The notes beneath the pieces are model-generated. The model was not told where the DNA came from and ran no database searches. It saw only the letters and a program-made list of their open reading frames with translations. A program made the position numbers and the translations under genes. From Elusimicrobiota bacterium (GTDB lineage: Bacteria > Elusimicrobiota > Elusimicrobia > UBA1565 > UBA9628), in the NCBI GenBank assembly GCA_027319565.1, contig DAHVNA010000039.1, forward strand, positions 1 through 16,000: a DNA stretch of 16,000 nucleotides, written 5' to 3'. Below, piece after piece: positions 2,346-8,097 of the stretch (positions are counted from its first letter, which is position 1; every line of letters begins with the position of its first letter).

Positions 2346-3245
2346 ATGGCATTTAAAAGAAAAGAGACGGTTATCGAAGCGATCGACTTAAATACCATCA
2401 CGACTGAAGACGCGGAAAGCCGCATCATCGCCGGCGTCAAGAAATACGCCACCAACGAGCCCAATTGGTCAAAGGCAGACACCAACACCCCTTATCTCGG
2501 CCATATTATAGGAATGGGAATTGAATCCGCCAATCTCGCCGATATCACGATGTCTATTGAAAGGCAATTCTTAACCAAGAAAACCCATCGCGTTCCGATT
2601 GAGGGAACCAATGATTTTCGCTTGGAAGACGGCGAGCTGGGAAAACTCCGAATTTTAGACGGTCAAGACGCCACCGCCGCGACCCCCGGACTTTCGGTTA
2701 AAATGCTGATGGATTTGGGGCATATGCCGAAAAACGACTCTTATTTATCCAAGGTCGTCGGTTTTGCCTATATCTCCAGCTTTGGAGAAGGCTACCGCCT
2801 CAATGAATCTCTCAAAAAATTGATGAACCGCATTGATAAATTGGCCGGCAATGAAAAGGCGGAAGCGATCCAAAATCTAAAGACGATGATCTCTCAAGCC
2901 AAAAGCTATCTCAGCGACATCTCGGACTCTAAGCGTTTCGCCGACTCAAAGCAAAAAGCCTACGAGACCGATAAAGCCGCCCACGACAACCTCACCCGAG
3001 AATTGTCTCTTCTTCAAGATAAAATCAAGGGATTGTCCTCCTCCAACGATCATGAAAAGGTTTCCGCCCTTAACGCGGAATTAGCCGAGTTAAAAACGCG
3101 CCTCAAAATGAGCTCCGATAAGTTGCGGGTATCTTCTGAAATCGCTTCTTGCGCGGCCCGGCGCTCTCCGATAGAAGAGGCCAAGGTCCTTGAGATCGCC
3201 TCTTTAATCTCTTCCACGGTTTCTCAAGCGGAAAAGATTTCTTAA
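2346..3245 (+). CDS. Uncharacterised protein: putative divergent ACP-like (phosphopantetheine-binding) N-terminal domain plus C-terminal coiled coil
   Basis: Strong SD (AAGGAG) before the ATG, so the CDS itself is well supported. Residues ~23-100 align by eye with ACP: AESRIIAGVKKY (helix I), GMGIESANLADITMSIERQF (cf. LGADSLDTVELVMALEEEF) and FRLEDGELGKL (cf. IEIPDEEAEKI). Residues ~150-299 are heptad-rich and helical. The neighbouring genes encode a PPTase and FabD. Confidence 0.6.
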   Translation: MAFKRKETVIEAIDLNTITTEDAESRIIAGVKKYATNEPNWSKADTNTPYLGHIIGMGIESANLADITMSIERQFLTKKTHRVPIEGTNDFRLEDGELGKLRILDGQDATAATPGLSVKMLMDLGHMPKNDSYLSKVVGFAYISSFGEGYRLNESLKKLMNRIDKLAGNEKAEAIQNLKTMISQAKSYLSDISDSKRFADSKQKAYETDKAAHDNLTRELSLLQDKIKGLSSSNDHEKVSALNAELAELKTRLKMSSDKLRVSSEIASCAARRSPIEEAKVLEIASLISSTVSQAEKIS

Positions 3246-3262
3246 GGGCTGTCTTATAAGAC

Positions 3263-4663
3263 GTGCTCTCGGATTGCGCCGTAAATAGGCTTCGCCGCCA
3301 GCGTTTTTTGAGTTCACTGTCCGCGGGGGCGGTTTATCTCGTTATTCTCGCCTTTTTGCGCTTTTACCTTCGCTACAACATCCAAAATCTCAAATCCTTC
3401 CGAAAGCAAGTGCGCAAGGCTCTTCAAGATCACACGGGGCCTGTCATCTGGGCCGCCAACCATCTAACGATGATCGATTCCTTCCTTATTTTCTGGGCGG
3501 CCTCTCCTTGGACCCAGGCGATGCGCGATTCCTCCATCCCCTGGTCGACGCCTGAAATAGAGAATTATTACTATCTGGGAGGCTGGTTCAAGAAAAATTT
3601 AATACGCGGCCTCATCTACCTTTGCCGCTGCATTCCGATTTCGCGATCCGGGGATGGAGAAGACGCGCAAAAAGGGCGCCAAGAAGTTTTTGAGAAGTGC
3701 GTTTGGATTTTAAAAAATAGCGGACCCGTTTTTGTTTTTCCGGAGGCGACGAGATCCCGGCACGGCTGGTTTAATCGGCATAAACCCAAGGACTTTTTGG
3801 GGCGACTGGCCCTTGAAGTTCCAAACGCGAAGTTTTTCTGCGTCTATTTCCGGGGAGAAAACCAGCTCTACTCCACCGCCGCGCCAATGAAGGGCGAATC
3901 CTTCCGCGCCTATTTCAAGGTGGTTCCCGCGGTTTTAGAAGGAGAAAAATCTCCCCGGCAGATTTCCGAAAGGCTCTTCAATATTTTAGGCGATTTGCAG
4001 GACCAATGGTTTCAACAGTCCGCCATGATTAAAAATTGTTCCGGCAACGACCTCATCGATCTTAAAGCGCCCGTGGCTCTAGAACATTTTGAAGAAGAAA
4101 ATGAAGAAAACACGGAGTGGATTTTGCGCCATTTAACCGACAAGGAAGCCTCTTATTGGAAAAATCAGCCCCCGGAAAAGCGTTTTTCCGTTTTCTGGAA
4201 AATTTTCGCCGCGAAAGAGGCGGCATCAAAGGCTCTTGAAAGATCCGGGATTTTTATTCCCTTTGGCGCTTTTCGCTCTTTTGAAACCGATCTCTTTACC
4301 AACCACATCACCCATCGCCCCACCGGAATTAGGCTCTCCCTTGCGTTCACCGATGAGGATCAAGACAAAATCCATTGCATTGCCGTCTTAAGAGGAGGCG
4401 TCATGGGAGACGAACACATCCCGGGAGACATTCTTTGGTCTATCGAGCAATTGCCGCCTAATACCAACCCCAGCGAATTTGTCCGCGAGCGCGCGCTTAA
4501 TTTTATCGCGGAATCATCCGATGACATTCTCTCTCCGGCGAGCCTGGCTCTTTCGGTTCACAACGGTCTTCCGGTCATCTACCGAAGCGGACGCTCCTTG
4601 GACATCAGCCTCTCTCTCTCTCATAGCGGGCGATACGCCGCCTTAAGCTTCATGATCTCATAA
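3263..4663 (+). CDS. Fusion of PlsC-like (LPLAT) acyltransferase and 4'-phosphopantetheinyl transferase (ACPS superfamily)
   Basis: N-terminal hydrophobic helix; catalytic NH67LTMID72 (HX4D), CIPISR and VFVFPEATRS (FPEGTRS-like). C-terminal half has G261NDLID, RHLTDKE, FAAK318E319AASKAL and ISLSLSH454SGRYAA. The GTG start is uncertain (weak SD). Confidence 0.88.
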   Translation: MLSDCAVNRLRRQRFLSSLSAGAVYLVILAFLRFYLRYNIQNLKSFRKQVRKALQDHTGPVIWAANHLTMIDSFLIFWAASPWTQAMRDSSIPWSTPEIENYYYLGGWFKKNLIRGLIYLCRCIPISRSGDGEDAQKGRQEVFEKCVWILKNSGPVFVFPEATRSRHGWFNRHKPKDFLGRLALEVPNAKFFCVYFRGENQLYSTAAPMKGESFRAYFKVVPAVLEGEKSPRQISERLFNILGDLQDQWFQQSAMIKNCSGNDLIDLKAPVALEHFEEENEENTEWILRHLTDKEASYWKNQPPEKRFSVFWKIFAAKEAASKALERSGIFIPFGAFRSFETDLFTNHITHRPTGIRLSLAFTDEDQDKIHCIAVLRGGVMGDEHIPGDILWSIEQLPPNTNPSEFVRERALNFIAESSDDILSPASLALSVHNGLPVIYRSGRSLDISLSLSHSGRYAALSFMIS

Positions 4664-4675
4664 AGGAAAAATGCG

Positions 4676-5617
4676 ATGGAAAAAAAATATTGCGTCCTGT
4701 TTGCTGGTCAATCCGTTCAGGAATCCGGCATGGGAAAAGATCTCCTCAAAATTCCCGCCGCCAAAGACGTTCTCTCGCGCCTTAAGCCCTTTCTGGGCGA
4801 AGACCTGGAATACCTGCTCGCCGAAATGCCGGACCCGGAATTGGCCCTGACTTTTAACGCCCAGCGCGCCATTCACGCTCATCATCTGGCGAATTATTTC
4901 GCCTACAAAGCGGCTCATCCGGAACTCATCCTCAACGGCGCCCTCGGGCATTCCATGGGAATTGTCGCGGCCTTGGTCGCCGCAGAATCAATCAGCGTGG
5001 AAGACTCCGGGAAATTTATTTTCGCCCGCGCCCAAGCTTTTTCTAAAGCTTGCAAAACTTTTACGGCTCCGATGGGACTGGCTTCGGTCAGCGCGGATGA
5101 TTTTAAAGACGTGGTTGACGAAGTCGCGCACTTTGCCCCCATTTCCGTCGCCCTTTACAACACCAAAAAGCGCGGGGTCTTGGGCGGAACCATGGCCGAG
5201 CTAGAGAACTTCGCCCAAAAAGCCCGAGAAGAAGACTGGCCGGTCCGTATTAAAATCCTTAAAGTCGAGGGACCATATCACACGAAGGCCTTTACGCCCT
5301 GCCGCGCCGAATTAGACCGCGCTTTATCCGCCATTGAAATCAAGCCGCCCAAAGCGCCGGTTTTCATGGGAACCTCCGGACAGGCCGAAAAAGATCCGGA
5401 GCGGATCCGCCGCCTTTTGTCCTCGCAAGCCGATTCCTCCGAACTCTATCTCCAGGCCGTTCAATCAGCATATTCGGCCGGCTGCCGAGACTTTATCGAA
5501 ATCGCCTACAAGCCCCAGCCCATCACCTGGATTCCCGAGCAGTTGATTTCGGAAGACGGCGCTTTATTTGAAGGCGTCACGACCAGCGCGATTAAAACGG
5601 AAGATATTCTCGCCTAA
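4676..5617 (+). CDS. fabD: Malonyl-CoA:ACP transacylase (FabD-like acyltransferase)
   Basis: LFAGQSVQ (FPGQGSQ-like), AQRAI, catalytic GHS93MG, conserved Arg in FARAQAF, LKVEGPYHT (GAFHS-like) and C-terminal FIEI; SD AAGGA upstream. Confidence 0.88.
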   Translation: MEKKYCVLFAGQSVQESGMGKDLLKIPAAKDVLSRLKPFLGEDLEYLLAEMPDPELALTFNAQRAIHAHHLANYFAYKAAHPELILNGALGHSMGIVAALVAAESISVEDSGKFIFARAQAFSKACKTFTAPMGLASVSADDFKDVVDEVAHFAPISVALYNTKKRGVLGGTMAELENFAQKAREEDWPVRIKILKVEGPYHTKAFTPCRAELDRALSAIEIKPPKAPVFMGTSGQAEKDPERIRRLLSSQADSSELYLQAVQSAYSAGCRDFIEIAYKPQPITWIPEQLISEDGALFEGVTTSAIKTEDILA

Positions 5618-5638: not shown

Positions 5639-6478
5639 TTACGTCAACCCAGCTTGGCGGAACGCGCGGCGCACGGATTGGAAGACTTCATCAAATTCGG
5701 GAAGGGTCGCCATCTGAGACGCGAGACGTTTTTCCCACAAGGCCTTGAGTCGCGCTTCTTTAGCCTGCAACTCGCCACGCACGGCATCTAGTTTCTTGCC
5801 GCGGAATTCTAACTTCTCTTCAATCGCCCCAAAGATCTCGCCAAGTGCGACGTAATTATTCTCGGTCATATGCCAGATATCGTAAAGGTCTCGGGGCTCG
5901 TTTCGAGCCTTATCCATTAATGCAATCGCTTTCTCTGACGCAATCTCATTGAGAGAATAGACGTGGAGCTTGCTGTCCTCTGGCAGGTCGGCGTATTCTT
6001 CGTAGCCGCGAAGGACGGGGAGTTGCTCAATCTCGAAGACGAGCTTCTCCTTGATCGTGACATCTACCTTAACCTCTTTGACGGAACCTGTCGCAGGGAT
6101 AGGTCCTACGTAGCTGAGGTAAAACGTATGGCTGTTCTGATGGCTGTTCCGGTCCTCGCGCTGAAATTGAAACACGACCCCCGAGGCGCTTTGGACTCGT
6201 GCGAAGACGGGTTTGAGTCCTTCCTGGATCGCTTCGAATGTCGTGTCCTGGGCTAGCGTGAAGTCGAGGTCTTCAGAGAAGCGGTAATCCGCGAAGTGGC
6301 AGCGTTTGAGCGCGGTCCCACCTTTGAATACGAGACGTTGGCCGAGATATTCCTGTGAGAGCGCAATGAGAAACCAAGCTAGACAATAGTCTCGCTCAAG
6401 GACCGACTCCGGGATTCGACGGCCGCCACCTTTGGCCAGGCGGTTCGCTAGGAGTGAGAGGTTTCGCTGGGCGATCAT
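5639..6478 (-). CDS. abiEii: Type IV TA toxin, AbiEii/AbiGii nucleotidyltransferase (DUF1814 family)
   Basis: LERDY, VFKGGTALKRCHFADYRFSEDLDF, VKVDVT, EIASEKAIAL and R..PRDLYD motifs; begins 3 nt after the antitoxin stop. Confidence 0.93.
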   Translation of the reverse strand: MIAQRNLSLLANRLAKGGGRRIPESVLERDYCLAWFLIALSQEYLGQRLVFKGGTALKRCHFADYRFSEDLDFTLAQDTTFEAIQEGLKPVFARVQSASGVVFQFQREDRNSHQNSHTFYLSYVGPIPATGSVKEVKVDVTIKEKLVFEIEQLPVLRGYEEYADLPEDSKLHVYSLNEIASEKAIALMDKARNEPRDLYDIWHMTENNYVALGEIFGAIEEKLEFRGKKLDAVRGELQAKEARLKALWEKRLASQMATLPEFDEVFQSVRRAFRQAGLT

Positions 6479-6481
6479 GGG

Positions 6482-7312
6482 TTAGGTGTGCAAGACGGCG
6501 CGGAGTTCCTCGGCGGCGACGTTGAGCTGCAATCGCCATTTCGAAATAAACTTGCCTTCTCGAGGCAGCATCGGATCGAGCAGCGCGTAGGCTGACCCCA
6601 GCTTCTGGCGAAGCGCGTCCAAATCGCTCGGGGTTCCGATCTCGAGGATTTCCATGAGATAGCCTAGGCGTCCGAGCGCAGAGCCGAAGTCCAGCCGAAG
6701 TGCATATTCGACCAGCTTCTTCATGTTGATATCGGATCGCCGCATCCAAAATCCTTTAGCGACTTCGGTGATGCCGCCGCAGTGTTTCGGCTGGCGAACG
6801 CCATCAAGCACCGTTCGCTCCAAATCGCTGACCCAGACCTTTTCCTCGTTGGTCGCCCAATGCTCGGCGAGGCCGAAGAAACGCGCGGGAGGACAGCGGA
6901 CGAAGTGAAATTGGGCGCCGAAAATTGTGCGGCCCAAAGGAGGATTGGGAGAGGTCGCGTAGACCACGAGTTGAGGCTGTGTGGTCATACGATGAATCTC
7001 CATTGCGGACGCATGGGAAATATAGTATTTATGGTCGCGCAGCAACTCTCGCGCCACGACATAGGGATTGCCCAAATATTCCTTCTCCTGGCCAAGCTCG
7101 AACGGAACGAGGTTGAACAAGCCCGGACGCAGGCGCGCGGCGACGCCGCGGCTGACCAATGCGCGGATGAAGCTACGCGCGGAGGGCGCTTTCAAGCCCG
7201 TGATCTCGACAACCTCGGGCAGAGCGAAGATAAGGTGGCGCCGCTCCTGTAGCTTTGAAAGGAGCTTAGCCGCTTGAGGGCCAACAGTCTTCAAGTGAGT
7301 ATTCTGTTCCAT
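6482..7312 (-). CDS. abiEi: Type IV TA antitoxin AbiEi family transcriptional regulator
   Basis: N-terminal winged-HTH-like segment (ALPEVVEITGL...IRALVSRGVAARLRPGLFNLVP), YYISHASAMEIHRMTTQ and VSDLERTVLDG. Start placed at ATG 7312 (SD GGGGA) because the promoter predicts a TSS near 7326. Confidence 0.9.
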   Translation of the reverse strand: MEQNTHLKTVGPQAAKLLSKLQERRHLIFALPEVVEITGLKAPSARSFIRALVSRGVAARLRPGLFNLVPFELGQEKEYLGNPYVVARELLRDHKYYISHASAMEIHRMTTQPQLVVYATSPNPPLGRTIFGAQFHFVRCPPARFFGLAEHWATNEEKVWVSDLERTVLDGVRQPKHCGGITEVAKGFWMRRSDINMKKLVEYALRLDFGSALGRLGYLMEILEIGTPSDLDALRQKLGSAYALLDPMLPREGKFISKWRLQLNVAAEELRAVLHT

Positions 7313-7338
7313 AATGTGCTTCCCCAATGCACATTATG
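7310..7338. promoter_or_regulatory. Palindromic operator 1 (putative AbiEi site)
   Basis: Perfect 10-bp inverted repeat CATAATGTGC-N9-GCACATTATG covering the -10 box, the SD and the start codon. Confidence 0.75.
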
Positions 7339-7670: not shown

Positions 7671-7988
7671 TTATCCGTTGTTGTGCGCGGCTTTGAACAG
7701 ACCTTTTAGATTCATTAGTGAAACTCGAATAGTCCGAGTTTTGATTTCACCTGCGGCTTGCCGCAAGTCCAGGCTTTTTCGCAAGTCTTGGAAGTCCTCA
7801 ACCTTAAAATCACTAAGACTTTGGAGCGCTCGCTCTGGATGGGCTTTAACGACCTCGCGACAAAGCGCCGCAAAAGCGTTGCGATAACCGTCTGCCGTCC
7901 CTGGGCTTAAGGGTTCGCCGCTCCGCTGGTTGCGATAGGCGGCGATCACTCGCTCAAGTTGATCTAAAAGGCGCTCTTGCGTTTTCAT
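7671..7988 (-). pseudogene. Tyrosine recombinase/integrase N-terminal core-binding (SAM-like) domain only; truncated remnant or stand-alone small protein
   Basis: GGAGG SD before ATG 7988; 105 aa. LSPGTADGYRNAF, LSDFKVEDFQDLRKSL and KTRTIRVSLMNLKGLFKAAHNNG match the core-binding-domain pattern. The stop falls at the domain end and no recognisable catalytic domain follows. Confidence 0.65.
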
Positions 7989-8097
7989 AGCGCCTCCGAT
8001 GTCAAAAACGCACACAAAAGCGCACACTTAAAACCAATGATTTTTTGGAAAATGAATTTTCCCAATCCTCGAAGAAATCCATTTTCAGAGGGAAAAA

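Follow-up and report, generated by a model that had tools for sequence, protein, structure and literature searches.

A predicted giant acyl carrier protein with its own phosphopantetheinyl transferase in Elusimicrobiota, a likely component of a split type II fatty acid synthase

What would a short operon for a phosphopantetheinyl transferase, a malonyl transacylase, an acyltransferase and a protein outside the known families do in a stretch of DNA that holds no other fatty acid synthesis gene? The stretch, hereafter the window, comprises positions 1 to 16,000 of contig DAHVNA010000039.1 (assembly GCA_027319565.1), from an Elusimicrobiota bacterium of the lineage UBA1565; UBA9628, and corresponds to contig C44 of a genome of 2.03 Mb that is 91.65% complete and that we call G000. 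We think it likely that the three genes supply carrier, priming, loading and release functions as one half of a self-contained type II fatty acid synthase (FAS), split from a condensing half on contig C45. We hold with similar confidence the core of this proposal, in which a 299-aa carrier would be primed on Ser61 by a cognate 4'-phosphopantetheinyl transferase (PPTase), loaded with malonyl and elongated by the C45 enzymes. The acyl carrier protein (ACP) AcpP is among the most uniform of bacterial proteins, while a carrier of about 300 residues with its own PPTase appears to be conserved across an uncultured Elusimicrobiota family. Pfam and NCBIfam both miss it, and annotation may in this way overlook carriers and misread lipid pathways in candidate lineages. 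If a large docking domain does keep the carrier/PPTase pair apart, the pair would be a usable orthogonal chassis for fatty acid engineering.

Layout of the operon

The trio consists of co-directional open reading frames (ORFs) with intergenic gaps of 17 and 12 nt, a layout described with its domains in an earlier note on this DNA and borne out by the ORF list and Pfam. It is divergent from upstream pal/cpoB, and an AbiEii/AbiEi pair lies downstream on the opposite strand. Apart from the trio, we found no fab, plsX or acpP gene in the window (37 ORFs of at least 80 aa, 10 of them Pfam-scanned). The features of the operon are as follows.

2346-3245, + strand: 299-aa ORF, giant ACP-like carrier (ORF list)
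2394-2729, + strand: ACP-fold domain, about residues 17-128 (structural matches, HHalign)
2526-2528, + strand: Ser61, predicted phosphopantetheine attachment site at the start of helix II (conservation, alignment, complex model)
2568-2645, + strand: optional beta-hairpin insertion after helix II, residues 75-100 (AlphaFold2 model)
2760-3242, + strand: C-terminal helical bundle with a long helical hairpin, residues 139-299, predicted PPTase docking surface (AlphaFold2 and complex models)
3263-4663, + strand: 466-aa ORF, acyltransferase-PPTase fusion (GTG start; relatives align from residue 1)
3263-4024, + strand: PlsC-superfamily (HX4D) acyltransferase domain with an N-terminal hydrophobic helix (PF01553 at residues 52-186, E 4.5e-10)
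4025-4663, + strand: PPTase domain with GND..D, KEA..K and C-terminal SHSG motifs (PF01648, ACPS, at residues 281-344, E 9.4e-8)
4676-5617, + strand: 313-aa ORF, FabD-like malonyl-CoA:ACP transacylase (ORF list; Acyl_transf_1, PF00698, E 9.8e-21)

A carrier fold in the 299-aa protein

Structural modelling supports the prediction that the 299-aa protein is a carrier built from an ACP-fold N-domain and a helical bundle of about 160 aa. The full-length AlphaFold2 model is well determined (pLDDT 91.6, pTM 0.85), and the N-domain folded alone (residues 10-131) reaches a pLDDT of 83. When the N-domain model was compared with 48,161 chains by VIA-align, the best 50 matches were all ACP, peptidyl carrier protein or carrier-domain chains, the best with Z 8.1 and a root-mean-square deviation of 2.2 A over 80 of 82 residues; several rows are titled merely as mitochondrial complexes, whose chains we take to be the ACP subunit. 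In the model, helix II spans residues 61-74 and is followed by a hairpin with strands at 75-84 and 91-100. The hairpin is largely absent from homologues P0009, P0013, P0016 and P0024, so the insertion appears to be optional.

The protein has the ACP-like motif G-I-E-S61-A-N-L, in which Ser61 is invariant (129 of 129 sequences). In alignments, Ser61 is in register with the serine in the NSANL motif of small ACPs and, in a weak match, with the DSL serine of the genome's own AcpP. A profile of divergent N-domains finds its nearest small relatives among 84-aa proteins (E 0.03-9), two of them named 'acyl carrier protein', and HHalign aligns the N-domain with one such 84-aa protein at 96.3% probability (E 2e-9). 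The earlier note had proposed a carrier from the serine motif, and the fold matches, this alignment, the invariant serine and the complex model described below all speak for it.

The carrier is difficult to see by family searches. It scores above cut-off for no Pfam or NCBIfam family, and the Pfam PP-binding family PF00550 is neither matched by it nor among the families listed for 36 homologues; searched against G000, PF00550 recovers AcpP alone. Scans of the carrier against PDB sequences, Pfam and NCBIfam gave coiled-coil noise or no match, and an ESM Atlas search yielded no usable match. Fold searches with the full-length protein, dominated by its helical half, returned generic helical bundles alone, and the C-domain could be assigned no relative in them, which does not amount to a new fold. 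The protein has the predicted fold and the helix-II serine of an ACP and fails the Pfam PP-binding test.

A fused PPTase as the carrier's partner

The second gene joins an acyltransferase to a PPTase. The PPTase half scores 32.5 bits against PF01648 (cut-off 25), and residues D263, D266, K318, E319 and K323 are kept in 120 of 120 homologues. The same 120 homologues all keep the HX4D dyad (H67, D72) and the block III PE motif (P160, E161) of the acyltransferase half, whose N-terminus has a hydropathy peak of 1.8 at residues 14-34. Against TIGR00530 (PlsC) this half scores 26.9 bits, below the cut-off of 102.95, and 14 of 18 members match weakly; judged from its motifs, we place it in the HX4D superfamily and stop short of calling it PlsC. 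No PDB sequence relative was found for the fusion or for its acyltransferase half.

In six loci outside the main clade (L120, L124, L125, L141, L162 and L163) the carrier is followed by a stand-alone PPTase without acyltransferase, that of L141 being 32% identical over 205 aa to the PPTase domain here; elsewhere the two are fused. The PPTase would therefore be the carrier's constant partner. A complex model of the carrier with fusion residues 255-466 scores 0.81, the best of three controls scoring 0.01; of 157 solved complexes 116 attain this mark, against 2 of 215 mismatched pairs. Between runs, contact agreement is at least 93%, and the partner pLDDT is at least 84. In the model, Ser61 contacts the catalytic Glu319 in the KEA motif of the PPTase, whose C-lobe meets 34 residues of the helical domain at a second interface. 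We know of no solved model for this second, helical-bundle interface. On the carrier side its residues exceed the remainder of the helical domain in conservation (0.84 vs 0.68), a value reached by none of 10,000 random draws, surface exposure being uncontrolled.

These data raise the question of whether the 299-aa protein carries anything. It may instead be a scaffold or regulator with an ACP fold, bound to the PPTase-acyltransferase and shuttling no growing chains, all the chemistry taking place on AcpP. Consistent with such a role, the ACP and helical domains are predicted to form one rigid body (pTM 0.85), the net charge of the ACP domain is just -4, against -9 in a small relative, and a large second PPTase interface could hinder shuttling. 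Against this, Ser61 is invariant and lies at the catalytic Glu in the complex model, and the gene fills the ACP slot between FabF and PPTase and is lost with that FabF (see below). We consider a pure scaffold quite improbable.

The loading enzyme

The third gene encodes the only PF00698 match in G000. Residues S93, R118, H202 and G11-Q12 are kept in 52 of 52 distinct homologues, and the best PDB match of the 313-aa protein is a malonyl-CoA:ACP transacylase (E 1.7e-26); its score against TIGR00128 is 119.8, below the cut-off of 260.9. Elsewhere in the order, most genomes lack a strong stand-alone FabD, their acyl-transferase domains lying within open frames of 2,000-2,900 aa (e.g. G092:C15, G072:C12 and G078:C34). 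These frames are probably pfaA-like megasynthases, comparable to Type R in PMC3098273, and G000 has none. For Elusimicrobium minutum, PMC3098273 describes a pfaA-like cluster.

The condensing half and a split operon

The earlier note had stressed that the window holds no ketosynthase, and had favoured a ketosynthase-free relay, similar in logic to the Dlt system, that would pass malonyl or a different short acyl group on to a lipid, glycan or protein. Such a relay would account for a trio that stands alone in the window's genus, divergent from pal both here and in all four close loci, with all three activities encoded. The missing ketosynthase is true of the window and untrue of the genome. 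Contig C45 of G000 carries a run of a FabL-like enoyl reductase, 3-ketoacyl-ACP synthase III (KAS III), FabG, FabZ and FabF that ends without a carrier. This FabF is the genome's single FabF-type ketosynthase and is 76% identical to the operonic FabF of locus L014. Read by eye, the catalytic residues of KAS III and FabF are intact. All the cluster enzymes score far below canonical NCBIfam cut-offs. Malonyl transacylase, KAS III, ketosynthase, ketoreductase, dehydratase and enoyl reductase are all present in G000 and form one operon in relatives.

We fetched the carrier regions of 20 of the 41 other carrier-positive genomes, chosen outside the genus and on long contigs. FabF lies upstream of the carrier gene in all 20, so the missing ketosynthase does not hold for the ancestral operon either, and the full enoyl reductase-KAS III-FabG-FabZ-FabF run does so in 19. 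The fusion follows the carrier in 19 (one contig ends), and FabD lies in the region in 16. Of 45 metagenome loci, 36 have FabF upstream of the carrier, and the remaining nine extend about 1 kb or less in that direction. The trio follows pal without the ketosynthase half in the window and in 4 of 4 close genus loci, and in genus relatives G190 and G340 FabF closes its operon without a carrier. The split is thus common to the genus and not an assembly error; misassembly as its cause is ruled out by these two observations. A Dlt-like relay is rejected on this synteny and on the joint presence of FabF and carrier in 66 of 67 genomes, the exception (G432) being 86% complete; no genome more than 90% complete has the carrier without that ketosynthase. 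We give a ketosynthase-free relay very little credence. What the earlier note had offered as its alternative, a lineage-specific fatty acid synthesis on a non-standard carrier, gains from both synteny and joint loss.

Further observations concern these genes and their surroundings. KAS III is tandemly duplicated in 3 of the 20 fetched clusters (L047, L051 and L063). On contig C28, G000 has a FabA-like double-hotdog gene followed by a second FabZ-like gene (L102:6547-8217). By eye, the former keeps a catalytic His in its first half only and the latter lacks the GHFP histidine, and is possibly an inactive partner subunit. About 2 kb from these orphan genes lies a Cas12b gene (L102:1445-4648, G000:C28; NF033949, E 4e-183, over cut-off). 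The cluster FabF has no plasmid match at E 1e-60.

Distribution and joint loss

Carrier homologues occur in 40 of 47 genomes of the family, and in none of the other orders sampled from the phylum. Among 101 genomes of the order, 67 have the carrier and 67 the fusion; the two occur together in 66, singly in 2 and not at all in 33, a linkage that is not due to chance. Whether the trio co-occurs in related genomes had been posed as a check in the earlier note, and these counts, with FabD in the fetched regions, answer it in the affirmative. In the 67 carrier genomes, no second, canonical-type FabF is seen at E 1e-40.

One genus, g2, has neither carrier nor fusion (0 of 9 each), and 8 of its 9 genomes have a different FabF (34-37% identity) that lies away from acpP in the five regions fetched. 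In the same genus the cluster FabD is retained at 5 of 5 loci fetched, four of them with KAS III alongside. This pattern suggests that carrier, fusion and cluster ketosynthase were lost together, and that FabD and KAS III can work without them. The genomes are related by kinship, so the joint loss represents one or a few events; the tree is midpoint-rooted with long branches, and we draw no order of events from it.

A proposed pathway

In the pathway that we propose, the PPTase domain would place phosphopantetheine on Ser61 of the carrier, a step suggested by fold, conservation and the complex model. The helical bundle would act as a second contact that makes the carrier/PPTase pair private, apart from AcpP and AcpS, as far as the model indicates. 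FabD would load malonyl on the carrier by an established chemistry, its residues being intact, and KAS III and FabF with FabG, FabZ or FabA, and the enoyl reductase would elongate the chain, as synteny and joint loss suggest. The membrane-anchored HX4D domain would then transfer the finished chain to a lipid acceptor, most likely glycerol-3-phosphate (G3P) or lysophosphatidic acid.

The choice of acceptor follows from the phospholipid genes of the genus. G000 has GlpK, CdsA, PgsA-like, PssA-like, Psd and a cardiolipin-synthase-like phospholipase D gene, as well as biotin carboxylase, a biotin carrier and three carboxyltransferases. In G000 and five genus relatives we did not find plsX, plsY or gpsA, and PlsB was not detected in the genus. 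In three relatives of the order plsY-gpsA follows or adjoins hflX, while in G000 a bifunctional-nuclease gene comes after hflX, in the middle of the contig. G000 has no PF01553 match other than the fusion, also in an unfiltered search with a profile of the PlsC-like proteins of eight relatives, and 4 of the 5 genus relatives likewise have a single match. With head-group and G3P-supply genes present and PlsX, PlsY and other PF01553 proteins not found, G3P or lysophosphatidic acid is the likeliest acceptor, and from gene content the fused acyltransferase would be the only visible route to phosphatidic acid in this genus. How a genus that keeps the head-group enzymes, with PlsX, PlsY, PlsB and canonical PlsC undetected, makes its phosphatidic acid is a puzzle. 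We regard release to a glycerolipid, rather than to a specialised acceptor, as an evenly balanced question, and the genus may scavenge lipids.

FabD, KAS III, FabF and the PlsC-family gene are the only ones of their kinds found in the 2-Mb genome, and the module is therefore probably the cell's main source of fatty acids. The earlier note had held, as part of a longer condition, that it would speak against its proposal if the genome had no other plsC, acpS or fabD and had a normal acpP elsewhere. This is so for fabD and the plsC-family gene, and a normal acpP exists; it is not so for acpS, of which there is a separate copy. In four relatives the housekeeping locus reads rpmF-plsX-fabG-acpP-rnc, without fabH, fabD or fabF, and G000 keeps fabG-acpP-rnc plus the separate acpS. 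The cluster enzymes probably also serve canonical AcpP for lipid A. G000 has a separate PF03279 (LpxL-family) gene, and a role for the fused domain as the sole late lipid A acyltransferase is accordingly unlikely.

Weighing the interpretation

A number of observations weigh against a giant carrier at the centre of a housekeeping synthase. Its basis, namely genes, motifs, linkage, joint loss and a predicted fold, is computational throughout. The Z of 8.1 falls within the range that VIA-align calls common; in Foldseek, too, carrier proteins come out on top, at weak E-values (best 0.14); for the genome's own AcpP the probability of the profile match is 1.3%; and the ACP domain is less acidic than its small relative. 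Solved ACP-PPTase complexes exist, so the complex score and the first interface may partly reproduce them, and the PPTase residues facing the helical bundle show no higher conservation than their neighbours (0.62 vs 0.73). With canonical AcpP and AcpS still present in G000, the role of the giant carrier may be confined to a special product. PlsX, PlsY and several PlsC-family genes are retained by most relatives that have the cluster, which implies that the fusion is not normally the housekeeping acyltransferase. In g2 genomes G194, G269 and G352, plsX and plsY are missing though the fusion is absent too. G194 (92% complete) keeps cdsA with no match to plsX, plsY, gpsA, PF01553 or FabF, and head-group genes are thus no proof of de novo phosphatidic acid synthesis; by its gene content G194 is a possible lipid scavenger. 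The completeness of G000 itself, 91.65%, also counts on this side.

In a rival reading, the module is a specialised-lipid branch akin to rhizobial AcpXL/LpxXL. The giant carrier would hold an unusual chain, very long or modified, which the HX4D domain would place on something other than a glycerophospholipid; bulk fatty acids would be made on AcpP with the same enzymes, and bulk phospholipid would come from scavenging or from an enzyme that goes unrecognised. Only product and acceptor set this branch apart from our preferred explanation. Besides the relatives that keep PlsX, PlsY and PlsC beside the fusion, the distance of the acyltransferase from canonical PlsC is consistent with such a branch, as are the g2 genomes, which run the cluster FabD and KAS III without a giant carrier, and the hydrocarbon-type exit of both PPTase-only Acidobacteriota genomes fetched (described below). 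Against it, G000 and 4 of 5 genus relatives have no PF01553 match besides the fusion, a separate LpxL-family enzyme is available for lipid A, and no tailoring gene is constant in the cluster. On balance we find a specialised-lipid branch somewhat unlikely.

The fatty acid synthase interpretation can also be carried further. The helical domain might clamp the carrier on the membrane-anchored PPTase-acyltransferase, giving a tethered, channelled machine from fatty acid to membrane; the single HX4D domain of this reduced genus might acylate G3P twice from the giant carrier, yielding phosphatidic acid without PlsX, PlsY, PlsB or canonical PlsC; and the same module might feed hydrocarbon synthesis in some Acidobacteriota. 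This extended version is speculative, and we think it unlikely to hold as a whole.

Three observations on neighbouring genes and genera belong here. In genus g8, plsX, plsY and gpsA are each found in 0 of 4 genomes and PlsC-like genes are kept. Genus g6 has plsX and plsY in 0 of 3 genomes, the two better ones giving a single weak match to PF01553. In G000 itself, an acyl-CoA-ligase-like gene is followed by a GlpD-like gene (G000:C100:70-2474, by eye), which could supply acyl-CoA or G3P otherwise.

Acidobacteriota copies

Outside the phylum, a full-length carrier occurs in 3 of 301 Acidobacteriota genomes sampled, one with the fusion and two with a stand-alone PPTase. In the latter two, PPTase and FabD are followed by a thioester-reductase-like gene and a gene resembling aldehyde-deformylating oxygenase (ADO), and no KAS III lies within the cluster region. 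This end of the cluster is located as follows.

L162:12238-14702 (genome G483): reductase and ADO-like genes, also a 203-aa gene without assignment
L163:1958-4438 (genome G499): reductase and ADO-like genes, also a 203-aa gene without assignment

The ADO-like gene matches PF11266 over cut-off (E 6e-18) and falls below the TIGR04059 cut-off (64 vs 223 bits). By sequence, the two clusters are candidates for an alkane route outside cyanobacteria. Their endings suggest that the release step varies, and that the module is a private synthase with different exits.

Relation to known systems

In its logic the system resembles bacterial type II FAS, with a discrete enzyme for each step, intact catalytic residues, a helix-II serine on the carrier and release by an HX4D acyltransferase. 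It differs in that the 299-aa carrier has a hairpin and a helical domain and is invisible to the Pfam PP-binding family, and in the apparently private PPTase, fused to an acyltransferase, with a normal AcpP and AcpS encoded alongside. It also recalls the 84-aa ACPs with an NSANLVD motif (P0282 and P0284-P0290), which share the pattern of helix I, loop and helix II, with the serine in register, but are of normal size, acidic, without a helical domain and matched weakly by PP-binding. We take these small ACPs to belong to flavobacterial FabF-ACP-PPTase clusters with type III polyketide synthase; their gene context was not found in plasmids or viral contigs. The Acidobacteriota copies resemble the cyanobacterial route of acyl-ACP reductase and ADO in ending with a reductase and a PF11266 gene. 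They depart from it in that the reductase is thioester-reductase-like and the ADO-like gene is below TIGR04059, and neither gene is in the window's operon.

Another parallel is the rhizobial pair AcpXL and LpxXL. LpxXL is an LpxL-type enzyme not known to carry a PPTase fusion, unlike the window's acyltransferase, which belongs to PF01553 and is encoded apart from the genome's PF03279 gene. AcpXL is a specialised, enlarged ACP with one extra helix, from which LpxXL acylates lipid A (PMC4402001). The likeness lies in a specialised, enlarged carrier with a dedicated acyltransferase beside a housekeeping ACP, and the difference in the size of the addition, a 160-aa domain here. We read the system as a type II FAS variant with a private giant carrier, following the logic of AcpXL/LpxXL. 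For Chlamydia, PMC6167442 describes acyl-ACP-dependent acylation of G3P without PlsY or PlsB, by the two acyltransferases PlsE and PlsC. The acyl-carrier-dependent step proposed here would be similar, except that a single PF01553 protein, joined to a PPTase, was found here. We found no description of this operon or carrier in the literature, of which few subscription papers were covered.

Genomic setting

A promoter scan gave no promoter-like site on the + strand upstream of the trio, and terminator counts are at chance level. Directly after fabD lies the AbiEii/AbiEi pair, a type IV toxin-antitoxin system (5639-7327, - strand), with PF08843 over cut-off and a weak AbiEi match. A 118-aa ORF at 7671-8027 (- strand) has no Pfam or NCBIfam match and, by eye, presumably resembles an N-terminal fragment of an integrase. 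The interval between fabD and pbp1A is variable: it differs in all four close loci, being empty in L012, and thus appears to be a hot spot for insertion.

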